The notes: generated from the letters alone by a model not told the origin. 64,000 nt of DNA from an uncultured Chthoniobacter sp. (GCA_964402065.1 CAYOAN010000001.1:200920-264919), one strand, 5' to 3'. Counted from the first letter of the stretch, positions 3,415-60,670 are shown. Translations and numbers: made by a program.

Positions 3415-4455
3415 ATGAGAATTGTTCTCGATGCTATGGGTGGGGACTATGCTCCTGCCAATACTGTGGCTGGAGCGGTCTTGGCGCTCAAAGAATATTC
3501 TAAAATTACCCGTCTTTTTTTAACGGGCGATGAGGCAATGTTGCGCGCTGAAGTCCGTAAACATCAGTGCAACGACCCTCGGCTTGAGATTGTTCATACA
3601 ACTCAGATCGTAGAAATGAGTGACCAAGCCGTTGAGGCTGTTCGCCGGAAAAAAGATTCTTCTATTTCACGGGCTGTGGACTTAGTAAAGAAAAAGGAGG
3701 CCGATGCCGTTGTAAGTGCAGGGCACACCGGTGCCGCTGTGGCTGCAACAACGATTAAATTACGAACGCTCGAAGGTATTGATCGCCCTGGTATTGCAAC
3801 CTGGTTTCCTACTGAAAAAAATCTCTGCGTGATTATGGATGCAGGAGCTAATCTTGATGCTCGTCCAGAACATCTCTTGCAATACGCTATCATGGGATCA
3901 GTTCTTTCTGAGCATATTCTTGGTTATGCCAATCCTTCAATTGGCTTGATGTCCATTGGAAGTGAGGATGTCAAGGGAAGTGGATTTACAAAAGAAACTT
4001 TTAAACTCCTCAAGGCAAGTTCTCTCAATTTTCGAGGCAATGTCGAAGGACATGATCTTTTTGAAAATCCAGTAGAAGTGGTCTTGTGTGATGGATTCAC
4101 GGGAAATGTTGTCTTAAAAACAGCGGAAGCAACGGCTTCGTTTTTAGTGCATACCTTAAAAAAAGAATTAACACAAACGCCAGTTCGTGCTCTTGGAGCA
4201 TGGTTGGCAAAGGGTGCTTTTCGGACCATTCGCAATCAACTCAATCCTGATCTTCATGGAGGTTCACCTCTTTTAGGAATTAATGGAACTTGTATCATCG
4301 CTCATGGATCAAGTTCTGCAATTGCAATCAAGCATGCTATTCGAGCTGCCACTGATTTTATTGAGCGCGGGGTTAATCCTCGTATTGTGGACGCAGTAAA
4401 AGCATATCATTTGAAAAACGCTGTCTCATCTCATGTCTCTGAACTTAAAAAATAA
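3415..4455 (+). CDS. plsX: Phosphate acyltransferase PlsX
   Basis: 346 aa. RIVLDAMGGDYAP, SAGHTGA, conserved synteny between rpmF and fabH. Confidence 0.95.
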   Translation: MRIVLDAMGGDYAPANTVAGAVLALKEYSKITRLFLTGDEAMLRAEVRKHQCNDPRLEIVHTTQIVEMSDQAVEAVRRKKDSSISRAVDLVKKKEADAVVSAGHTGAAVAATTIKLRTLEGIDRPGIATWFPTEKNLCVIMDAGANLDARPEHLLQYAIMGSVLSEHILGYANPSIGLMSIGSEDVKGSGFTKETFKLLKASSLNFRGNVEGHDLFENPVEVVLCDGFTGNVVLKTAEATASFLVHTLKKELTQTPVRALGAWLAKGAFRTIRNQLNPDLHGGSPLLGINGTCIIAHGSSSAIAIKHAIRAATDFIERGVNPRIVDAVKAYHLKNAVSSHVSELKK

Positions 4456-5440
4456 TCATCTACTTTCGGCTTCTGTTCTTGGAACTGGTAGTTATGTTCC
4501 TGAGCGTGTGATGAGGAATGAAGACCTTGAAAAAATGGTCGAAACGAATGATGAGTGGATTCGGACACGCACAGGAATTCGTGAGAGACGTATCGCTGCA
4601 CCGCATGAAACAACAAGTGACATGGCTGCTGCTGCAGCCCGAGCCGCTATAGAAAACGCCGGGATTATCGCGGAAGAAATTTCAATGATTATCTGCGCAA
4701 CAGTAACGCCAGATATGTTTTTTCCTAACACGGCTTGTTTTGTTCAAACCAAAATTGGAGCAACAAAAGCCATCTGCTTTGACGTGAGTGCTGCTTGTTC
4801 TGGGTTTCTCTACGCTATGGAGATAGCTCGTCAATTTATTGCAACAGGGACGCACAAAACCATTTTAGTTATTGGAGCTGATAAGCTTTCTAGTATTGTG
4901 AATTGGGAAGATCGCAATACATGTGTTCTATTTGGTGATGGAGCTGGAGCTGCCATTTTGCAGCATCGTGACGGGGCTCGTGGAATTCTTGCAACTCCTA
5001 TGGGAAGTGATGGAAGGCTTGCTGACATTCTTTATACTCCTGGAGGAGGAAGTGCTGCTCCCACAACGATTGAAAATGTGCATGAAAAACTTTCGACTAT
5101 TCGAATGAATGGAAGAGAGACTTATAAACAAGCAGTAAAAGCAATGGTCGAGTCTTCTCAAGAAGCCTTGCGTCGCGCCGGAGTGAGTATTGATGAGATC
5201 AAGTGTATTATTCCTCACCAAGCTAATTTGCGAATTATTGAAGCCATTGCTGATCGCCTTGAGGTGTCACTTGATAAATTTCATATTAACCTCGACCGCT
5301 ATGGAAATACTTCAGCTGCGGCCGTCGCTATTGCTTTTGACGAAGCTGCAAGACAACAGCGCTTTGAGCGAGGAGACCTCGTTTTGCTCGTTGTTTTCGG
5401 AGGGGGGTTGACCTGGGCCGCTTCTGTCTTAGAGTGGTGA
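4433..5440 (+). CDS. fabH: 3-oxoacyl-ACP synthase III
   Basis: 335 aa. Active-site context DVSAACSGF, HQANLRI, GNTSAAA. Overlaps the plsX 3' end by 23 nt. Confidence 0.95.
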   Translation: MSLNLKNNHLLSASVLGTGSYVPERVMRNEDLEKMVETNDEWIRTRTGIRERRIAAPHETTSDMAAAAARAAIENAGIIAEEISMIICATVTPDMFFPNTACFVQTKIGATKAICFDVSAACSGFLYAMEIARQFIATGTHKTILVIGADKLSSIVNWEDRNTCVLFGDGAGAAILQHRDGARGILATPMGSDGRLADILYTPGGGSAAPTTIENVHEKLSTIRMNGRETYKQAVKAMVESSQEALRRAGVSIDEIKCIIPHQANLRIIEAIADRLEVSLDKFHINLDRYGNTSAAAVAIAFDEAARQQRFERGDLVLLVVFGGGLTWAASVLEW

Positions 5441-5534
5441 GAAAATTCACCACGAAGATTGCCAAGTTGTTAAAGCGGTACGCAATGAACACAAAATAAA
5501 AAGTTTAAAAATTAGGATTTAGCATTCAACAAAA

Positions 5535-6982
<1,448 letters not shown>

Positions 6983-53351: not shown

Positions 53352-55718
53352 ATGCAGCAAAACAATAATTATTCTTTTTCAACCAGACTGATTTTTGGAA
53401 TAGGCTTCTTATTTTTTGGTGTGATTGGAATAACTTGGCTGTGCCAGCTTCCATCAGCTGAAGAAGCTTTCGGCAATACAGGAAAGTTATGGGATTTGCT
53501 GCAGACTCATTGGAACGGTTGGACACCGACATTCATGTTGGGGCATAGCGGTATGATTTATCAGCTCTCAGTCATAGAGCTTTTTACTCATTACCTTCTG
53601 CTGCCGCTTCAATCTTTTTTAACATTGTTTGCTATCAAAAAACTCATTGCGCTGGGGTATTTTGCAACTAGTGGTGTGACCATGTTTTTTTTCGCGCGAC
53701 GCCTGACCCGTAATGAAACTCAGGCTGCCGTGGCAGCGCTAGCCTACATCATGATGCCATCCATCACGGTCGCTATGGGAATTTATGAGCATTTCAGTGT
53801 GACCCTTTGTTTTGTTTTTGTTCCACTTATTTTACGAGGAGTTTTAGTTTTGTCCGAAGAGAAGTCGCTGCGAGAGACTGTTGGGCTAGGAATAGCAGCA
53901 AGTGCAATAGCATTAAGTTATGCGAAAATTGCTGTCGTGATTTCTCCGATGCTACTGCTCTGGACGTTGGAAGTTTTACGCTTACAACCTGTTGCAGTTC
54001 GTTTGAAAATCATCACGCGCTACGCCATGAGTGCTGCGCTAGCACTTATATTGACGCTTCCTTTTTTATTGCCAGCCTCACGAGAGTTTGGTTTTGCCGC
54101 TGGTTTTTTATTTGATCCGCTAGACGCTTGGCAACATCATTACGCATTTAAGTCAGCACTTCAATGGATTGATCTCTGGGGATTTTTGATGAAAGGTTCA
54201 GGAGCTGATATAGAGAGGGATGCTGCGATGTTTGCAATTGGGTTCATTCCACTGTTAGGCATTTCCTTGGGATTAGGGCTTCCTGCTTTAAAAGAATGGC
54301 GTCATTCCTTGCTTGGACGTTGGTTCCTAATCCTAGTAGTCTGCTGGTTATTTTCTATCAATCTGGCCGCAGGTCCTGATGGAATTCTTTTAGGGCATTG
54401 GCATCTTTTAAAAAATAATGCTCGTGATATTTCGGACTTTTCTGTTCCTCTTCTTTGGCTCGCTCTTGCTTGGTTAATTTGGATGAGTTATCAGGTTATC
54501 CGTTATCTCATTGCGGGAGCACCATGGCGCTCATGGTTATTATTAGCCTTATTTTTAGCGCTGCCTTTTTTTCGGATTGCAGCCGTATTTCCTTTATTTA
54601 AGGATATTCGAGCTCCGGAATCATTTTGGAGTGTGGGAGGTTTTTGCGCATTAGCAGCCGCTATTGGAATGGTGACAGTAGAGCTTTTTGTGAAAGTAGT
54701 TCCAATACGATTCCGTACTCTTGTCGCAGTAGTCATGGGCCTTCTGTTTATACTCGAGCTTTATCCTATTCATTCCACTTATTGGACACGTGGTCTATCT
54801 GAGGAACTTTTTTCTGATTACGATCAGTCAGTGGTTTTTTTAAAAAATGCACCGTTACCCGGTCGTGTCTACCCGTTGAGTAGCCGTTATTTTTATTTAA
54901 CGATTCCGCAAAAGACAGGGCGTTCTCTTAGTACGGAGGCCCTGATGCGGCATTTTGAATTGAAGTGGGTTCGGTGTTTTGAAGCCGCAGGGATGGCCAA
55001 CATTGATATGATGAAAACCTATCTCAACCTATCAGGGGTTTCTTATGTTTTCATCGATAAGGAAGATCCTCTGACGCCAAAACAAACGCAGGATATTTAC
55101 CGTGCTCTTTTTCCAGTCGTGTTTGAAAATCATTCGATTGTGATTTTAGCCAATGAGACTTCACTCTACCCGGCTTTTTTGGCACATAACTTTGTTGTGC
55201 TTCCTTCAGAAAGTTATCAGATGGCTCCAATGAGCTTGCAGTTAGCGCGAATGAATCTTCTTAGTGTAGAGCTTGCTTCAAGCGATCAACGGCAAAATGG
55301 ATTTGCAGGCAGAGCTGCCGGAAATAGTCAGGTAGAACTTTTGCCGCAATATCAAAAAAGCGGAGGAGCTCCTTTTGAACGCGTTCCTTCTATGAGTCGT
55401 CGGTCTGATGATTATGGGAAAATGATCTATCGTTTGCCTTCCACTGTTTCAGGATGGTTGACTGTTGCGGAGGCTTTTCATCCGGACTGGCAAGCTTTTA
55501 TTGATGGGCAGCCAACCGATATTCGTCGAGCTGCTTCAGCACTCCTTGCTGTCTATGTGCCACTTGGCTCTCAAGAAATTCTTTTTAAATTTGTTCCGCC
55601 GCTTTGGTATTCCATTTCATTTTACCTTGGATGCTTGCTTTGGGTCATAGCCTTGGGAAGCTTTTTATTTTTCCGCAGTCGTTGGGCTCATCCTTCTTGG
55701 AAGGACTGGTGGAATTAG
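53352..55718 (+). CDS. YfhO-like polytopic membrane protein (GT-C-type extracytoplasmic glycosyltransferase candidate)
   Basis: 788 aa with many TM helices. C-terminal module AEAFHPDWQAFIDGQPTDIRRA..LLAVYVPLGSQEILFKFVPP matches the YfhO-family tail pattern, followed by a final TM helix. Confidence 0.75.
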   Translation: MQQNNNYSFSTRLIFGIGFLFFGVIGITWLCQLPSAEEAFGNTGKLWDLLQTHWNGWTPTFMLGHSGMIYQLSVIELFTHYLLLPLQSFLTLFAIKKLIALGYFATSGVTMFFFARRLTRNETQAAVAALAYIMMPSITVAMGIYEHFSVTLCFVFVPLILRGVLVLSEEKSLRETVGLGIAASAIALSYAKIAVVISPMLLLWTLEVLRLQPVAVRLKIITRYAMSAALALILTLPFLLPASREFGFAAGFLFDPLDAWQHHYAFKSALQWIDLWGFLMKGSGADIERDAAMFAIGFIPLLGISLGLGLPALKEWRHSLLGRWFLILVVCWLFSINLAAGPDGILLGHWHLLKNNARDISDFSVPLLWLALAWLIWMSYQVIRYLIAGAPWRSWLLLALFLALPFFRIAAVFPLFKDIRAPESFWSVGGFCALAAAIGMVTVELFVKVVPIRFRTLVAVVMGLLFILELYPIHSTYWTRGLSEELFSDYDQSVVFLKNAPLPGRVYPLSSRYFYLTIPQKTGRSLSTEALMRHFELKWVRCFEAAGMANIDMMKTYLNLSGVSYVFIDKEDPLTPKQTQDIYRALFPVVFENHSIVILANETSLYPAFLAHNFVVLPSESYQMAPMSLQLARMNLLSVELASSDQRQNGFAGRAAGNSQVELLPQYQKSGGAPFERVPSMSRRSDDYGKMIYRLPSTVSGWLTVAEAFHPDWQAFIDGQPTDIRRAASALLAVYVPLGSQEILFKFVPPLWYSISFYLGCLLWVIALGSFLFFRSRWAHPSWKDWWN

Positions 55719-55795
55719 AGCGGTTTATCTCAAGTTAATGCTGCAACGATGGTCATTTCGGTACGTGCCTTCTCGATAACCACGTCCAAGAAAAA

Positions 55796-56410
55796 TCAAA
55801 AGTAATCTTTTTTTATTTCAGTGTTAGCAGTGCCATTCTCCCGCATTTCCCATTTTCTTTTTTCCTTTGTAGTCAATTGATCAAGGTCCTTTTTTGAAGG
55901 GAACTTAAAGCTGATTAGTTTTGAAGAGCTCGTATCCCAATCTACATCAAAGATGCACATTTTTTGCTCTTTGAACGGACTACCTTTAAAAGGATAAACT
56001 CCATAAATCAACCTGGCATTTTTTTTAAAAAAATGAACACCTACAACAAAGTAATAAGATGGTTCCTGTATGGGAGGATCACAATCGTAAGCCATCCAAT
56101 GATTGTCTTGGTAATGAACAATGGTGGCCATTGACCCTCCTGATAAATGAGAAACGATAAACAATGATTTTGAATCAGGTGTCCATTTAATATTTTGTAT
56201 GGAAAGAACAAGAGATTTTGAAAAGTCATTTTTAGAGGTTAAGCAATTATGAATTGTTAAAACTGTTTCTCTATCCCCAATAACCAACCTCGCAATATAT
56301 TTTTTGTTTGGTGATGGATATTCTTCATGACGTTCATATGCAACAGCCTCTTGCCCATGTATTAGACAGGTTAAAAATAATGAAAATAAAAAATTGCGAA
56401 AGAAGTTCAT
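55796..56410 (-). CDS. Cassette partner protein A: 204-aa signal-peptide protein of unknown family (candidate immunity/inhibitor)
   Basis: MNFFRNFLFSLFLTCLIHGQEA signal-like N-terminus. Its ATG lies 2 nt after the stop of the upstream gene. SPNKKYIA / WTPDSKSLFIV are beta-propeller-blade-like strings. The paralogue is at 58041-58655. Confidence 0.8.
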   Translation of the reverse strand: MNFFRNFLFSLFLTCLIHGQEAVAYERHEEYPSPNKKYIARLVIGDRETVLTIHNCLTSKNDFSKSLVLSIQNIKWTPDSKSLFIVSHLSGGSMATIVHYQDNHWMAYDCDPPIQEPSYYFVVGVHFFKKNARLIYGVYPFKGSPFKEQKMCIFDVDWDTSSSKLISFKFPSKKDLDQLTTKEKRKWEMRENGTANTEIKKDYF

Positions 56411-56412
56411 AT

Positions 56413-57174
56413 TTAGGATCCAGATGGATAGTAAGTAACTGTAGCATAAATGTCTCTATCATGATTAAATTGGTCAGAAGGATCTGTTGGAACTGGCCCT
56501 AATCCACCACTTCGCTCTTTAATGCCTAATCCGAGATCCTGAGCAGCTTTGATAGAAATTTCACCAACGCTATCTTTTTCAGGACCAAAGTCTCCTACAA
56601 TTGATGAGATAGATTTTATATATTGAGTTGAGTCAATGATGATAGGCCTACCACCTATCATACGCCAAGCGTATGTATAAAAATATACAGTTACATCTGC
56701 TCTGTCTCCCTTTTTGACACCTTGATTAATTAACCATATAGGAGCAACAACATAGGAATCAGTATCAGCATTGAGAGCTTTGTTATTTCTATGAAATGAT
56801 GTGTCCCCCTTATGATCGTAATCTCCATGAGAAGGTCCCGTTCCATCATCATCAAGTTTAATTTGGCCGTTATATGTTAATGGCCCTCTTACCATCATGA
56901 GAGGTAATTCTTCTTTAAATTCAGAAGCATTCTCGTTACTTGACTGATTTTCATAATCAGTTTCAATATTTTTATCGACACTAGTATTTTGATATTCTGC
57001 AGGTGTCTCGCTTTCCTCATTGGTTACTTCATTGCTAGTAGAGTAACAACCAATGCTTGAATAACTGCTAGCTGAAGAGTCAGAGTTGTACTCCGGAATA
57101 CTACTATAGGCAATAAGTTGATTTGGAAATAAAGTAGTCCATAGACAAAAAAGAAGGAGGAAAAATGGTTTCAT
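56413..57174 (-). CDS. Cassette protein A: 253-aa secreted protein with a GH75-chitosanase / double-psi-beta-barrel-like C-terminal domain (candidate glycan-hydrolase effector)
   Basis: Signal peptide MKPFFLLLFCLWTTLFPNQLIA, then an acidic S/N/E-rich linker. Motif order: LDDDGTG, GDTSF, LNADTDSYVVAP, GDRADVTV, IVGDFGP..VGEISIKAAQDLG. Confidence 0.8.
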   Translation of the reverse strand: MKPFFLLLFCLWTTLFPNQLIAYSSIPEYNSDSSASSYSSIGCYSTSNEVTNEESETPAEYQNTSVDKNIETDYENQSSNENASEFKEELPLMMVRGPLTYNGQIKLDDDGTGPSHGDYDHKGDTSFHRNNKALNADTDSYVVAPIWLINQGVKKGDRADVTVYFYTYAWRMIGGRPIIIDSTQYIKSISSIVGDFGPEKDSVGEISIKAAQDLGLGIKERSGGLGPVPTDPSDQFNHDRDIYATVTYYPSGS

Positions 57175-57193
57175 GGTTTTAGATTAGGGTCCT

Positions 57194-57222
57194 TCTAAAA
57201 CTGCGTGCTGGTATATTGTCAA
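57194..57222 (-). promoter_or_regulatory. Sigma70-type promoter of cassette A
   Basis: Minus strand: TTGACA (57217-57222), 17-nt spacer, TTTAGA (57194-57199), about 20 nt upstream of ATG 57174. Preceded by TTTAAAC. Confidence 0.55.
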
Positions 57223-57302
57223 GTTTAAATATCGTTATTTCCATGGATGATCAGCTTTCTATTGTTGGTGAGAAGAGCTAACTTGGATTGTGCTTCTGCG
57301 TA

Positions 57303-57437
57303 TCACACAATAACGTGTCGCAGGATTCGCTCTGGATTAAAAGGAGATCCGCTTCCTGGGAGTCTGATAAGTTTATCCTTGATCATATTTTGCTCAAGTA
57401 GCTCACTCAGAATATGTGCTCGTTCCAACTCCGTGAA
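57303..57437 (-). pseudogene. 3'-terminal fragment of an unidentified gene, truncated by the family-1 copy at 57438
   Basis: Minus-strand frame reads ..FTELERAHILSELLEQNMIKDKLIRLPGSGSPFNPERILRHVIV* with no start codon. The frame begins exactly at the repeat boundary. Confidence 0.4.
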
Positions 57438-57515
57438 TAGAGCATGTTAAAAAATTCTATAACCGCGTATTGCGGCGTCACTCCAGTGCTCGAAGTCCCC
57501 AGTATGAGATATAAT
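57438..57515 (+). repeat. Family-1 element, truncated (left half only)
   Basis: TAGAGCATGTTAAAAAATTCTATAACCGCGTATTGCGGCGTCACTCCAGTGCTCGAAGTCCCCAGTATGAGATATA, after which homology is lost. Confidence 0.8.
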
Positions 57516-57548
57516 ACCCATTTAGGGGAGTGGGGTATAAGAAGATAA

Positions 57549-57917
57549 ATGTTAAATCTTTTGATTTCTTGAAAATTTAAAACCAAATTGGGATTGGTCG
57601 TTTATACAAGTTTCAGCTTTCAATTCTCTAAATAAAGATCAAGTAAGACCCCTACCAATTTATAAAAAGAATGGGATCCACCTCTGAGGCCAACTCGAGA
57701 TTTTCTCTTTTGAAAATCCTCCGAAGCGCTCTTCGCAGCCTGAAGCATGTGGATTGCGGCATTTAGCATTTGCTGTTAATGATCTCCAGGCCGCTGTTCA
57801 ATATTTGGTCGAGAGAGACATTGTCTGTGAACCAATTCGTATTGATGAATTGACGAGTAAACGATTTGTTTTTTCAACACTCCTGATGAGTTGCCATTGG
57901 AGCGTTATGAAAAATAG
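57549..57917 (+). pseudogene. Decayed VOC/glyoxalase-family (YaeR-like) pseudogene
   Basis: 57694-57917 reads LEIFSFENPPKRSSQPEACGLRHLAFAVNDLQAAVQYLVERDIVCEPIRIDELTSKRFVFF-NTPDELPLERYEK* only if 1 nt is restored in the T6 run at 57869-57874. There is an in-frame TGA at 57685-57687. The N-terminal half is eroded or shortened. Confidence 0.75.
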
Positions 57918-58040
57918 ACAAGATCAAGTACAAGGTGGAGAGTATAAGAATTTTTTAACTCTTCCAAAAATTTTTCGACAGATTCAATAAATTGTACCTA
58001 TCACCTTCTTCACTAGGAAAATAACCACGTCCGCGAAGAA

Positions 58041-58655
58041 TCAAAAGTAATCTTTTTTTATTTCAGTGTTAGCAGTGCCATTCTCCCACATTTCCCATTT
58101 TCTTTTTTCCTTTGTAGTCAATTGATCAAGGTCCTTTTTTGAAGGGAGCTTAAAGCTGATTAGTTTTGGAGAGCCGGTATTCCAGTCTACATCAAAAATG
58201 CATATTTTTTGTTCTTTGAACGGACTACCTTTGGAAGGATAAACTCCATAAACTAGCCTAGCAAATTTTTTGAAGAAGTGAGCTCCAACAACAAAGTAAT
58301 AGCATGGACCCTTTACAGGAGGATCACAATTGTAAGCCATCCAATGATTGTCTTGGTAATGAACAATGGTGGCCATCGATCCTCCTGATAAATGCTCAAC
58401 GATAAATAGTGATTTTGAATCAGGCGTCCATTGAATATTTTCTACACGGGAAATAAGAGCTTGTGAAAAATCATCTTTAGAGGTTAAGCAATTATGAATT
58501 GTTAAAACTGTTTCTCTATCCCCAATAACCAACCTCGCAATATATTTTTTGTTTGGTGATGGATATTCTTCATGACGTTCATATGCAACAGCCTCTTGCC
58601 CATGTATTAGACAGGTTAAAAATAATGAAAATAAAAAATTGCGAAAGAAGTTCAT
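58041..58655 (-). CDS. Cassette partner protein B: 204-aa signal-peptide protein (candidate immunity/inhibitor), paralogue of 55796-56410
   Basis: The first 60 aa are identical to copy A. The central region is diverged (DDFSQALISRVENIQW vs NDFSKSLVLSIQNIKW; PPVKGPCYY vs PPIQEPSYY). Same 2-nt coupling to the upstream gene. Confidence 0.8.
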   Translation of the reverse strand: MNFFRNFLFSLFLTCLIHGQEAVAYERHEEYPSPNKKYIARLVIGDRETVLTIHNCLTSKDDFSQALISRVENIQWTPDSKSLFIVEHLSGGSMATIVHYQDNHWMAYNCDPPVKGPCYYFVVGAHFFKKFARLVYGVYPSKGSPFKEQKICIFDVDWNTGSPKLISFKLPSKKDLDQLTTKEKRKWEMWENGTANTEIKKDYF

Positions 58656-58657
58656 AT

Positions 58658-59422
58658 TTAGGATCCAGATGGATAGTAAGTAACTGTAGCATAAATGTCT
58701 CTGTTTTGATTGACTTGATCATGAGGATCTGTTGGAACTGGTCCTAGTCCATTAGAGCGTTCCCTGATACCCAGTCCCAAATCCCTAGCTGCCTTGATAG
58801 ATATTTCACCGACGTCATCTTGCACAGGCCCAACATCTCCTACTATTGATGATATTGATTTTGTATAACAATTACAGGGGTAGGTTACTAAGTTATTATT
58901 GGCATCTAAGCCACTATTATATTCATAAAAATATACGGTTACATCGGCTCTATCTCCCCCTCTAACACCTTGACTGGATAACCATCCAGGAGCGACAACA
59001 TAGGAATCAGTATCAGCATTGAGAGCTTTGTTATTTCGATGAAATGCTGTATCGTTGTTGTGCTTTTTATCATTATGAGATGGTCCCGTTCCATCATCAT
59101 CAAGTTTAATTTGGCCGTTATATGTTAATGGCCCTCTTACCATCATGAGAGGTAATTCTTCTTTAAATTCAGAAGCATTCTCGTTACTTGACTGATTTTC
59201 ATAATCAGTTTCAATATTTTTATCGACACTAGTATTTTGATATTCTGCAGGTGTCTCGCTTTCCTCATTGGTTACTTCATTGCTAGTAGAGTAACAACCA
59301 ATGCTTGAATAACTGCTAGCTGAAGAGTCAGAGTTGTACTCCGGAATACCAGTATAGGCAATAAGTTGATTTGGAAATAAAGTAGTCCATAGACAAAAAA
59401 GAAAGAGGAAAAATGGTTTCAT
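58658..59422 (-). CDS. Cassette protein B: 254-aa secreted GH75/DPBB-like protein, paralogue of 56413-57174
   Basis: The N-terminal roughly 115 aa are nearly identical to copy A. The catalytic-domain core is diverged, but DDDGTG, LNADTDSYVVAP, GDRADVTV and IVGDVGP..VGEISIKAARDLG are retained. Confidence 0.8.
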   Translation of the reverse strand: MKPFFLFLFCLWTTLFPNQLIAYTGIPEYNSDSSASSYSSIGCYSTSNEVTNEESETPAEYQNTSVDKNIETDYENQSSNENASEFKEELPLMMVRGPLTYNGQIKLDDDGTGPSHNDKKHNNDTAFHRNNKALNADTDSYVVAPGWLSSQGVRGGDRADVTVYFYEYNSGLDANNNLVTYPCNCYTKSISSIVGDVGPVQDDVGEISIKAARDLGLGIRERSNGLGPVPTDPHDQVNQNRDIYATVTYYPSGS

Positions 59423-59441
59423 GGTTTTAGATTAGGGACCT

Positions 59442-59470
59442 TATAAAACTGCGTGCTGGTATATTGTCAA
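59442..59470 (-). promoter_or_regulatory. Sigma70-type promoter of cassette B
   Basis: Minus strand: TTGACA (59465-59470), 17-nt spacer, TTTATA (59442-59447). Conserved with cassette A. Confidence 0.55.
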
Positions 59471-59547
59471 GTTTAAATAGCATCGTAGTTATTGTAATTT
59501 TTGAACTATTATTACTTAGAAATTACATTAAGTTGATTTCATCTTAT

Positions 59548-59672
59548 TTAGGAACAAGCAGCGTTCGCATTCAGTCACGTTATCTTCGGATAGCGTCTCA
59601 GTCTTCGGCCTTGTCCTAAGAAAAAATGCCGGCGCTTCTAACGTCCCCCTTTTCAATTTAATACACTATAAT
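59548..59672 (+). repeat. Family-2 dispersed repeat (best-preserved copy)
   Basis: TTAGGAACAAGCAGCGTTCGCAT..CACGTTATCTTCGGATAGCGTCTCAGTCTTCGGCCTTGTCCTAAGAAAAAAT..CTTTTCAATTTAATACACTATAAT. Contains the hairpin CGTTATC-TTCG-GATAGCG (59578-59595). Confidence 0.75.
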
Positions 59673-59687
59673 TTTACTTAAAGTGGC

Positions 59688-60527
59688 CTAAGCGCCTAAA
59701 TCAATAGAGTGATTTTTTAATGCAGGTAGCCATTCTTGAGCCCAAGCAATAACGGTGTCGATTCCTCTTTCTAGCTCAATAGTTGGTTGCCATGAAAGAT
59801 CATGATGATACTGCGTAGATTCTAACAGCTCTTCTTTGTTTTGATGCTGGTGATCACCAATAAGGGTTACGACATCTTCAAAACTTACGTTCAGGCGATT
59901 GCAAATTAAAGACACAAGGTCTCGAACTGAAATGAGGTGATTGTTAGAAAAATGATAAATCTCTCCAGGGACTCCCTCGTAAACTACCCTGAAGATGCCG
60001 GCAGTGATGTCATTGATATGAATAAAGGCTTGCTTGGTGTGGCCACCATCATGAAGGAGAAATTTTTTTTCTGATAAAATAGAGAGAATGATTTTAGGAA
60101 TGAGCTCATGAACTTGCTGACCGGGGCCGTAAACATGACTCATTGGAGCTATGACAACAGAAGAAGTTTTGGTAGTTGTGTTCCGTTGATAGCAATTCTC
60201 CTTCAGTGAGGAAACAGAGACATACTTCAGAGGCTGATTTTTTAATTGATCATGAAAGTCGAGCTGAACATCACCCATGCAATGAATAATATAATCTGGA
60301 TTATAATCATTGATCATCGAGATGGCATTATCAGGATGAGCACCCAAACTGAGTTGCTTTAGGGTAAGGCGGTGAGCGCTTCCTACTTTCCAATGATAAG
60401 GTGTAAACGGAATACTTTTTTTGGGGACGTAGCTTATCCCTAGTACAGTGAGCCCTTGAGAGAGTGCATGGTGAACAAAATGACTTCCCGAAAAAGAATG
60501 ACTTCCAATAATAACGATTTTTTCCAT
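59688..60527 (-). CDS. Divergent NAD-dependent epimerase/dehydratase-family protein (catalytic motif apparently degenerate)
   Basis: 279 aa. The N-terminal Rossmann-like IVIIGSHSFSGSHF and HVYGPGQ are conserved. The region where S..YxxxK is expected is shortened (..ENCYQRNTTTKTS..), with no clear YxxxK. Confidence 0.75.
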   Translation of the reverse strand: MEKIVIIGSHSFSGSHFVHHALSQGLTVLGISYVPKKSIPFTPYHWKVGSAHRLTLKQLSLGAHPDNAISMINDYNPDYIIHCMGDVQLDFHDQLKNQPLKYVSVSSLKENCYQRNTTTKTSSVVIAPMSHVYGPGQQVHELIPKIILSILSEKKFLLHDGGHTKQAFIHINDITAGIFRVVYEGVPGEIYHFSNNHLISVRDLVSLICNRLNVSFEDVVTLIGDHQHQNKEELLESTQYHHDLSWQPTIELERGIDTVIAWAQEWLPALKNHSIDLGA

Positions 60528-60562: not shown

Positions 60563-60670
60563 AACTGAAAAGGGTGCGTTAGAAGCACAGAAATTTTTTC
60601 TTAGGACAAGGCTGAAGATTGAACCGCTATCTGAAGATAACCAGCCGTCTGAAAACAAAGTCTTAAGAAA
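60549..60670 (-). repeat. Family-2 dispersed repeat, inverted relative to 59548-59672
   Basis: The reverse complement reads ..GGTTATCTTCAGATAGCGGTTCAATCTTCAGCCTTGTCCTAAGAAAAAATTTCTGTGCTTCTAACGCACCCTTTTCAGTTTTATAGGCTATAG. About 85 percent identical by eye to the 59548 copy over the core. Confidence 0.7.

Follow-up and report, generated by a model that had tools for sequence, protein, structure and literature searches.

Two direct copies of a two-gene cassette are carried by a 64,000-nucleotide (nt) stretch of DNA from an uncultured Chthoniobacter sp. (GCA_964402065.1, CAYOAN010000001.1:200920-264919), referred to here as the window. In each copy, gene A encodes a protein with a signal-peptide-like N-terminus and a C-terminal domain related to the GH75 glycoside hydrolases, and gene B, directly downstream, encodes a smaller protein that also has a signal-peptide-like N-terminus. 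Each cassette is probably a secreted toxin-immunity pair, with A (A1 and A2 in the two copies) as the toxin and B (B1 and B2) as the immunity protein. Read this way, the pair is a new toxin family with new partner families within a known kind of toxin-immunity system.

Searches of A, B and a second partner family introduced below, C, against the Pfam, NCBIfam and PHROG models returned nothing meaningful, and the A family is rare, with 22 close relatives in a collection of 5.8 billion clustered proteins. When A was aligned with its relatives, the N-terminus resembled a signal peptide, the linker behind it was variable and of low complexity, and the C-terminal domain of ∼160 residues was well conserved. 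In the AlphaFold model of A, the domain has a predicted local distance difference test (pLDDT) score of ∼90, and residues 16–91 score below 50 and are disordered. The only significant fold matches of this model in the PDB, identified using Foldseek, were structures of the GH75 chitosanase V-Csn (7tvm, 7tvo and 7tvp; E = 1.5–2.2e-4, probability 1.0). V-Csn was also the top match when the A-family profile was compared with the sequences of PDB entries. This match was weak (E = 0.32) and fell exactly over the stretch GDvGP...GEgS (V-Csn residues 135–170), pairing D148 and E157 of V-Csn with D195 and E205 of A. The GH75 family is defined by four acidic residues (D34, D36, D148 and E157 in V-Csn) and two universally conserved glycines (PMC9485262). 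In V-Csn, E157 acts as proton donor and D36, which like D34 is located near the N-terminus, has been proposed as the base; D36 and D148 bind the free amine of glucosamine (GlcN) (PMC9485262). A D148N change reduces activity five-fold and E157Q nearly abolishes it, such that both residues are needed for full activity (PMC9485262). Both A1 and A2 keep the GH75 signature as D108-x-D110-G111, G194-D195 and G204-E205, with the equivalence of D108/D110 and D34/D36 taken from the motif pattern rather than from a residue-level structural alignment. Across 169 family members, the residue at position 108 is D in 153 and C in 8 (a Cys at the first acidic position has also been reported in some viral GH75 proteins; PMC9485262). 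D110 is present in all 162 members aligned at that position, D195 in 154 of 160, and E205 in 160 of 160.

Profile searches provided a bridge between A and the Pfam-defined family. An exhaustive search of 1.84 billion cluster representatives identified 419 proteins at E ≤ 1e-3, with 91 at E ≤ 1e-10. Pfam PF07335 was matched at E ≤ 0.01 by 20 of 61 mid-length profile hits (best 1e-17), and five further proteins (P0116, P0129, P0141, P0145 and P0174) that pass the 27-bit cut-off of PF07335 are found by the A-domain profile at a whole-library E = 1e-8 to 1e-10. A glycan hydrolase had been proposed in a preliminary description made from the sequence of the window, and the fold, the catalytic signature and the profile links to GH75 all bear this out. 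Taken together, the structural model and the sequence comparisons argue that A, in its C-terminal ∼160 residues, belongs to a divergent branch of the GH75 superfamily that retains the signature intact, and is not a Pfam-defined member. Relative to V-Csn, the branch has a ∼30-residue loop with a conserved SHxDxxH motif in place of the ∼70-residue Domain-2, and a long variable beta-hairpin is inserted at residues ∼158–196. The SHxDxxH motif lies at A1 residues 115–121 (window ∼56812–56832). Its H116 is kept in 104 and its H121 in 96 of ∼160 aligned sequences, and the motif may form a metal- or substrate-binding site specific to the branch. A single significant match was obtained in the viral structure library BFVD, to a 551-aa phage protein (E = 7e-8).

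Elsewhere, RHS-repeat and PAAR proteins carry the same domain as their C-terminal tip, a finding that lends support to the polymorphic effector-immunity architecture suggested for the pair in the preliminary description. The motif DPxGL ends the Rhs shell and marks the start of C-terminal toxin domains, and in P0031, P0033 and P0034 a DPWGL or DPSGL immediately precedes the A-type domain. RHS-repeat and YD-shell Pfam domains are present in P0031. RHS repeats with the A-type domain at the extreme C-terminus were also found in P0037, P0038, P0044, P0052, P0054, P0055, P0068, P0070 and P0108, proteins of 370–1,923 aa. Overall, a DPxG[LWTF] motif occurs within 140 residues upstream of the domain in 17 of the 169 family members, and P0129 combines the domain with a PAAR motif. 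Other relatives have the A-type domain fused to PG_binding_1, Glucosaminidase, Peptidase_M15_4/VanY, and type IV secretion system (T4SS) pilin modules, and the peptidoglycan (PG)-binding part of P0174 matches endolysin PHROGs. Because of these fusions to cell-wall modules, peptidoglycan is a candidate substrate of the bacterial branch; given the toxin-immunity reading, we put this at roughly even odds. In P0103, P0149 and nine members of alignment A5, the GH75-like domain is joined to T4SS pilin (TrbC/VirB2-type) modules, and these fusions suggest that the domain cuts the wall when conjugation machinery is assembled.

The partner of A could be assigned to no family. The model of B is all-beta, with ∼11 strands followed by short helices. 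Its best fold matches in Foldseek are segments of beta-propellers, namely the tricorn-type 2gop and the TolB structures 7mx5 and 1crz (E ∼1e-3, TM-score 0.3–0.4, 140–190 columns), and its motifs SP(N/D)xxY and W(T/A)PDSK recall PD40 blades. Unlike the TolB/PD40 propellers, which are closed structures of 6–8 four-stranded blades, B appears to consist of approximately three blades plus C-terminal helices, and it has no Pfam PD40 or WD40 match.

Whether A and B are linked in other genomes had been set beforehand as a test of the pairing. Hidden Markov models (HMMs) of the A domain and of B were run over all retrieved loci, and the linkage was found. In 14 distinct cassettes, of which two are in the window and 12 elsewhere, A is directly followed by a B homologue, with A-domain identities ranging from 45 to 100% and a junction consisting of a 2-nt gap or a gene overlap. 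In addition to the two window copies, these loci are L012, L005 (and its duplicates), L023, L015/16, L017, L024–L028, and the Rhs C-terminal modules L009 and L010/11. The B genes downstream of the Rhs-fused versions of the domain were detected at E = 7e-12 and 5e-14, and L009 is an orphan Rhs C-terminal module adjoining transposase and resolvase genes. B homologues have signal-type or lipoprotein-type N-termini. At three loci, one of them in the window's own genome (L001, L020 and L013), B's place is taken by family C, exported proteins of 224–241 aa that are clearly homologous to one another. Every informative locus had a B or a C partner. Conversely, all five loci found through B have A immediately upstream; these five are close relatives, and this direction of the test covers little divergence. 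The possibility that C is a remote homologue of B was considered and rejected: hhalign returned a probability of 18% and aligned only the signal peptide and SPxxxY, and the two are treated as separate families.

Several individual loci deserve description. Elsewhere on the window's 467-kb contig, L001 (6001–7386) contains a third A paralogue, P0015 (219 aa, 49% identical), followed after 1 nt by a C gene (241 aa), with the pair sitting between gyrA and secA. In L013, A has been split by a frameshift into two 74-aa pieces (4445–4906) and the C gene (4909–5583) is intact, a pattern that is expected of an orphan immunity gene. In the metagenome-assembled genome (MAG) GCA_001830205.1 and its relatives (L005–L008), which are labelled Verrucomicrobia or Chthoniobacterales, the A-B pair has toxin-antitoxin genes (PhdYeFM/YoeB, ParD) on one side and type III secretion system (T3SS) genes (FHIPEP, YscD-like, TPR chaperone-like) on the other. 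Finally, P0058 (337 aa) combines a signal peptide, a B-like region (residues 13–148, E = 4e-10), and an A-type GH75 domain (residues 192–337) in one polypeptide. The order of this fusion is the reverse of the usual gene order, and an assembly or gene-calling artefact is possible.

The two cassettes of the window were described previously as duplicated and co-diverged, and closer comparison shows this description to be too simple. The copies are mosaic. They are nucleotide-identical from the promoter-like site to A residue ∼112, except for replacement changes in codons 7, 24 and 25, and they are again identical over B residues 1–58 and most of the B C-terminus. Beside these blocks, the synonymous divergence (dS) between copies is 0.3–2.1 in the A catalytic domain and 0.2–1.1 in the middle of B, and the hairpin at A residues ∼165–185 has been replaced in A2 relative to A1. 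In alignments with close relatives, copy 1 groups with L012, L026 and L027 (type I) and copy 2 with L024 and L025 (type II), the two types differing mainly in the hairpin and the C-terminal third of A. As read from the alignments, the mosaic divergence and the two allele classes indicate that two old allele types, each represented by one cassette, sit side by side in the window after partial homogenization by gene conversion, and that the copies are not a recent duplicate pair. At three positions in B (Q/K ∼115, V/A ∼125 and M/I ∼151), the residue goes with the A type in all 7 of the 7 pairs, a pattern that linkage alone could explain. The possibility that the A hairpin pairs with the variable B segment 60–75 in an allele-specific way was also considered, and was rejected when no co-variation was found.

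Over a longer range, the family is patchy and the neighbors of the cassette differ in every genome compared. A gyrA-A-partner-secA locus is present in three genomes, with C as the partner in two (L001 and L020) and B in one (L023). Divergence is faster in B than in the A domain (mean pairwise identity 44% versus 58%, r = 0.93). The GC content over both cassettes and the spacer between them (window 55600–59800) is 0.35–0.38, compared with 0.41–0.45 in the flanking polysaccharide and suf genes, and this dip is consistent with acquired DNA. Partner swapping, decay of A, a fast-evolving B, patchiness and a GC dip are all typical of toxin-immunity pairs.

In the mechanism that we propose, A would be exported by the Sec pathway via its own putative signal peptide, and the beta-1,4 glycan hydrolyzed by its GH75-type inverting domain would most likely be the backbone of peptidoglycan. 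B would be transcribed with A and probably translationally coupled to it. Following its own export to the periplasm, it would bind and block A, sparing the wall of the producer. Exit of A from the cell could occur through a type II secretion system (T2SS), in vesicles, or by lysis. In other bacteria, the same domain and partner would be delivered as the C-terminal tip of Rhs/PAAR toxins, and in this lineage the domain would act alone behind a signal peptide in a bacteriocin-like manner.

A number of points weigh against this proposal. The template modelling (TM) scores between A and V-Csn are modest (0.29–0.40 in Foldseek), in part because 90 disordered residues count in the query length, and the B model has a moderate pLDDT of 72. 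None of the four window proteins matches PF07335 at E ≤ 1 or reaches its 27-bit gathering threshold, and A is without Domain-2, which forms half of the V-Csn cleft. The sole GH75 activity demonstrated to date is chitosan hydrolysis (PMC9485262), and the argument for peptidoglycan comes from the domain fusions. The toxicity of A and its binding by B are inferred, and no delivery apparatus or outer-membrane route was identified in the window. Lastly, overall dN/dS (the ratio of replacement to synonymous divergence) is 0.39 for A and 0.28 for B. Such purifying selection would also fit a housekeeping enzyme, as would the gyrA-A-partner-secA synteny in three genomes. A might then be an autolysin-type periplasmic glycosidase that remodels the cell's own wall, with B or C as its regulator or inhibitor. 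The possession of a Sec signal with no delivery domain agrees with such a role, as do the T4SS pilin fusions of some relatives, a setting in which wall hydrolases help to assemble the machine and do not kill. However, a housekeeping function would be hard to reconcile with a family this rare, with three paralogues in one genome, with cassette neighbors that differ from genome to genome, or with a partner family that has been swapped at one locus and left intact beside a decayed A in L013. Moreover, the same domain-partner pair is found on Rhs C-termini, which are dedicated toxins. We therefore consider wall remodelling unlikely.

We are similarly skeptical that A is a true secreted chitosanase directed at fungal, algal or zooplankton glycans, either for foraging or as an anti-eukaryotic factor, with B as a glycan-binding or folding accessory. 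Such a role would be in keeping with chitosan hydrolysis as the activity shown for GH75, including the contacts of V-Csn D36 and D148 with the GlcN amine. It would also suit the origin of the relatives in freshwater and soil Verrucomicrobiota MAGs and the resemblance of B to a few propeller blades, a fold able to bind ligands. Yet a foraging enzyme does not require an exported partner that is tightly coupled to it, accompanies the domain on Rhs tips and is replaceable by an unrelated family. Furthermore, the fusions are to peptidoglycan-binding and -hydrolase modules, not chitin-binding ones, and no locus has sugar-uptake or catabolic genes beside the cassette. The position of the cassettes next to a polysaccharide biosynthesis cluster raises yet another possibility, that A is a processing enzyme, trimming the glycan product of the adjacent GT2/YfhO/rml genes in the way periplasmic hydrolases do in exopolysaccharide operons. 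We find this very improbable: the cassettes are on the opposite strand, have their own promoter-like sites and are lower in GC than the cluster, and these neighbors recur in no related locus, the pair elsewhere adjoining secA, T3SS genes, surA, or a phosphatidylserine (PS) decarboxylase gene.

A broader proposal can tentatively be made. The bacterial GH75 branch might be mainly a family of peptidoglycan-cutting weapons and lysins rather than chitosan-foraging enzymes, with three delivery modes (Rhs/PAAR tips, endolysin-like PG-binding fusions, and Sec-exported bacteriocin-like proteins as in the window) and at least two new periplasmic immunity families, of which B would be the first propeller-blade one. 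We regard this extension as possible but somewhat doubtful.

Comparison with known systems helps to place the pair. With the GH75 chitosanases (CAZy GH75, PF07335; V-Csn, PDB 7TVL/7TVM, PMC9485262), A shares the double-psi beta-barrel core, the D-x-D...D...E tetrad with the two glycines, and profile homology via intermediates above the Pfam threshold. In contrast to those enzymes, the A-type domain serves as the toxin tip of Rhs/PAAR proteins and is accompanied by an exported partner of its own. Neither a toxin role nor peptidoglycan hydrolysis was reported for GH75 in the literature searched, which left out most subscription journals, and a prior description is possible. With the Rhs polymorphic toxins, the family has in common a C-terminal domain that follows DPxGL on different scaffolds and a small immunity-type gene directly downstream. 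It also shares with them orphan modules by transposase and resolvase genes (L009), alternative immunity families, and standalone cassettes. It differs from them in that the window-type toxin domain and its partner families have no Pfam or NCBIfam model, and in that A of the window has no Rhs, PAAR or other trafficking domain. For lack of a secretion-system marker, the preliminary description had called the cassette an undescribed Sec-dependent variant. This was an overstatement, as toxins with only a signal peptide (Sec/T2SS) are a listed class of polymorphic toxins (Zhang et al. 2012, PMC3482391). That survey names neither a chitosanase nor a double-psi barrel among the toxins, and it states that beta-propeller immunity proteins were then unknown (PMC3482391).

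The closest functional parallels come from systems with unrelated folds. Periplasm-acting glycoside hydrolases with periplasmic immunity proteins are found in the pairs Tge/Tgi and VgrG3/TsiV3 of type VI secretion systems (T6SS) and in pesticin/Pim. As proposed for A and B, a cutter of wall glycan acts in the target periplasm and an adjacently encoded exported inhibitor protects the producer. Tge, VgrG3 and pesticin nevertheless have lysozyme-like alpha-helical folds, as opposed to the GH75 barrel of A, and neither B nor C is related to their immunity proteins. In addition, A lacks the receptor-binding and translocation domains present in pesticin. No lysozyme-like structure in the PDB was matched by the A model, which places A outside the Tge/VgrG3 type of T6SS effector. 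Effectors of the T6SS that have been termed "chitosanase-like", such as VgrG3 as cited in PMC12663445, were considered as GH75 members and set aside, having the lysozyme fold instead.

As toxin-immunity pairs, these cassettes would add to the toxin-immunity catalogue a toxin domain with at least 419 cluster representatives and two partner families, all of them unannotated. GH75, so far tied only to chitosan degradation, would now be linked to interbacterial antagonism, with peptidoglycan as the probable target. This bears on the reading of GH75 genes in metagenomes and soil viruses. Should the broader weapon and lysin interpretation prove true, some of the soil-virus GH75 genes taken as auxiliary metabolic genes of the chitin cycle could be lysis or host-competition genes. 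The window also offers a compact test system, with two natural allele types side by side and, in the same genome, a third paralogue with the other partner family. For freshwater and soil Verrucomicrobiota-like bacteria, which belong to a poorly studied phylum, the pair would provide an initial lead on factors used in competition.

The features of the cassettes are collected in Table 1. A direct repeat had been reported at 55775–57232 and 58022–59477, and these coordinates agree with the approximate limits that we set using a 40-nt sliding alignment. The two copies of the ∼1.46-kb unit are offset by 2245/2248 nt, with a segment identity of 89–95% (repeat families D1–D3). All four open reading frames (ORFs) are intact and on the minus strand, and the TAA stop of A and the start of B are separated by a 2-nt gap, as originally described. 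The repeated unit spans from just 5' of TTGACA to ∼15 nt past the B stop codon. Its limits match the promoter-like site through B, and exactly one self-contained cassette has therefore been duplicated. No further copy or fragment of A, B or C was found in the window by tblastn at E ≤ 10.

Table 1. Features of the two cassettes in the window. Positions are counted from the first nucleotide of the window; limits of the cassettes and spacer are approximate.
Feature	Position	Strand	Basis
Cassette copy 1, type I allele: promoter-like site, A1 and B1	55780..57235	-	repeats, sliding identity
Cassette copy 2, type II allele: promoter-like site, A2 and B2	58025..59480	-	repeats, sliding identity, alignment
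Gene A1, 253 aa: signal-peptide-like 1-22, disordered Ser/Asn/Glu-rich linker 23-91, GH75-like domain 92-253	56413..57174	-	ORF, AlphaFold
GH75-like double-psi beta-barrel domain of A1; acidic D108, D110, D195, E205	56416..56901	-	Foldseek, motif alignment, family conservation
Gene B1, 204 aa: exported all-beta partner, candidate immunity protein	55796..56410	-	ORF, model, linkage
Gene A2, 254 aa; catalytic domain diverged relative to A1	58658..59422	-	ORF, alignment
Gene B2, 204 aa; 88% identity to B1, differences only in residues ∼59-165	58041..58655	-	ORF
Promoter-like TTGACA-17 nt-TTTAGA, 20 nt upstream of the A1 start codon	57194..57222	-	read from sequence
Promoter-like TTGACA-17 nt-TTTATA, 20 nt upstream of the A2 start codon	59442..59470	-	read from sequence
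Non-repeated spacer between the cassettes	57236..58024	.	sliding identity

The signal-peptide-like N-termini noted earlier for both proteins were confirmed by eye. Each has a basic residue, a hydrophobic stretch, and a small-residue cleavage-type motif (...NQLIA/YS in A and ...QEAVA/YE in B), and AlphaFold models each as a helix followed by disorder. The TTGACA-17-TTTA(G/T)A hexamers reported upstream of each A gene are likewise present. The weakness of the second hexamer kept both sites from being called by the consensus scanner, and the hexamers are therefore taken as facts of the sequence, not as promoter evidence. A heptad leader, said in the preliminary description to precede many core genes of this region and to be missing from the cassettes, was not detected as a tandem repeat anywhere in the window (Tandem Repeats Finder, score ≥ 40; no other search made).

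The cassettes lie at the junction of a polysaccharide cluster and the suf genes, as had been described. On the upstream flank are rmlD, an FkbM methyltransferase gene, a GT2 gene and a YfhO-like gene, and on the downstream flank a truncated dTDP-glucose dehydratase-like gene is followed by sufC and sufB. Beyond the cassette itself, no synteny was found between the window and any related locus. Within the spacer, a 78-aa ORF (MRHLAFAVNDLQAAVQYLVERDIV...) at 57754–57990 (+) resembles a VOC/glyoxalase-type fragment in the six-frame translation; it has no Pfam match, and the VOC assignment is by eye only. This ORF is probably pseudogene debris left at the insertion of the second cassette. Beyond copy 2, a 74-nt inverted repeat (84% complementary) is present at 59579–59652 and 60568–60641. 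It encloses the truncated dTDP-glucose 4,6-dehydratase-like gene (59688–60527, minus strand), of which only the C-terminal half matches the family profile, and the gene looks like a remnant enclosed by terminal repeats.

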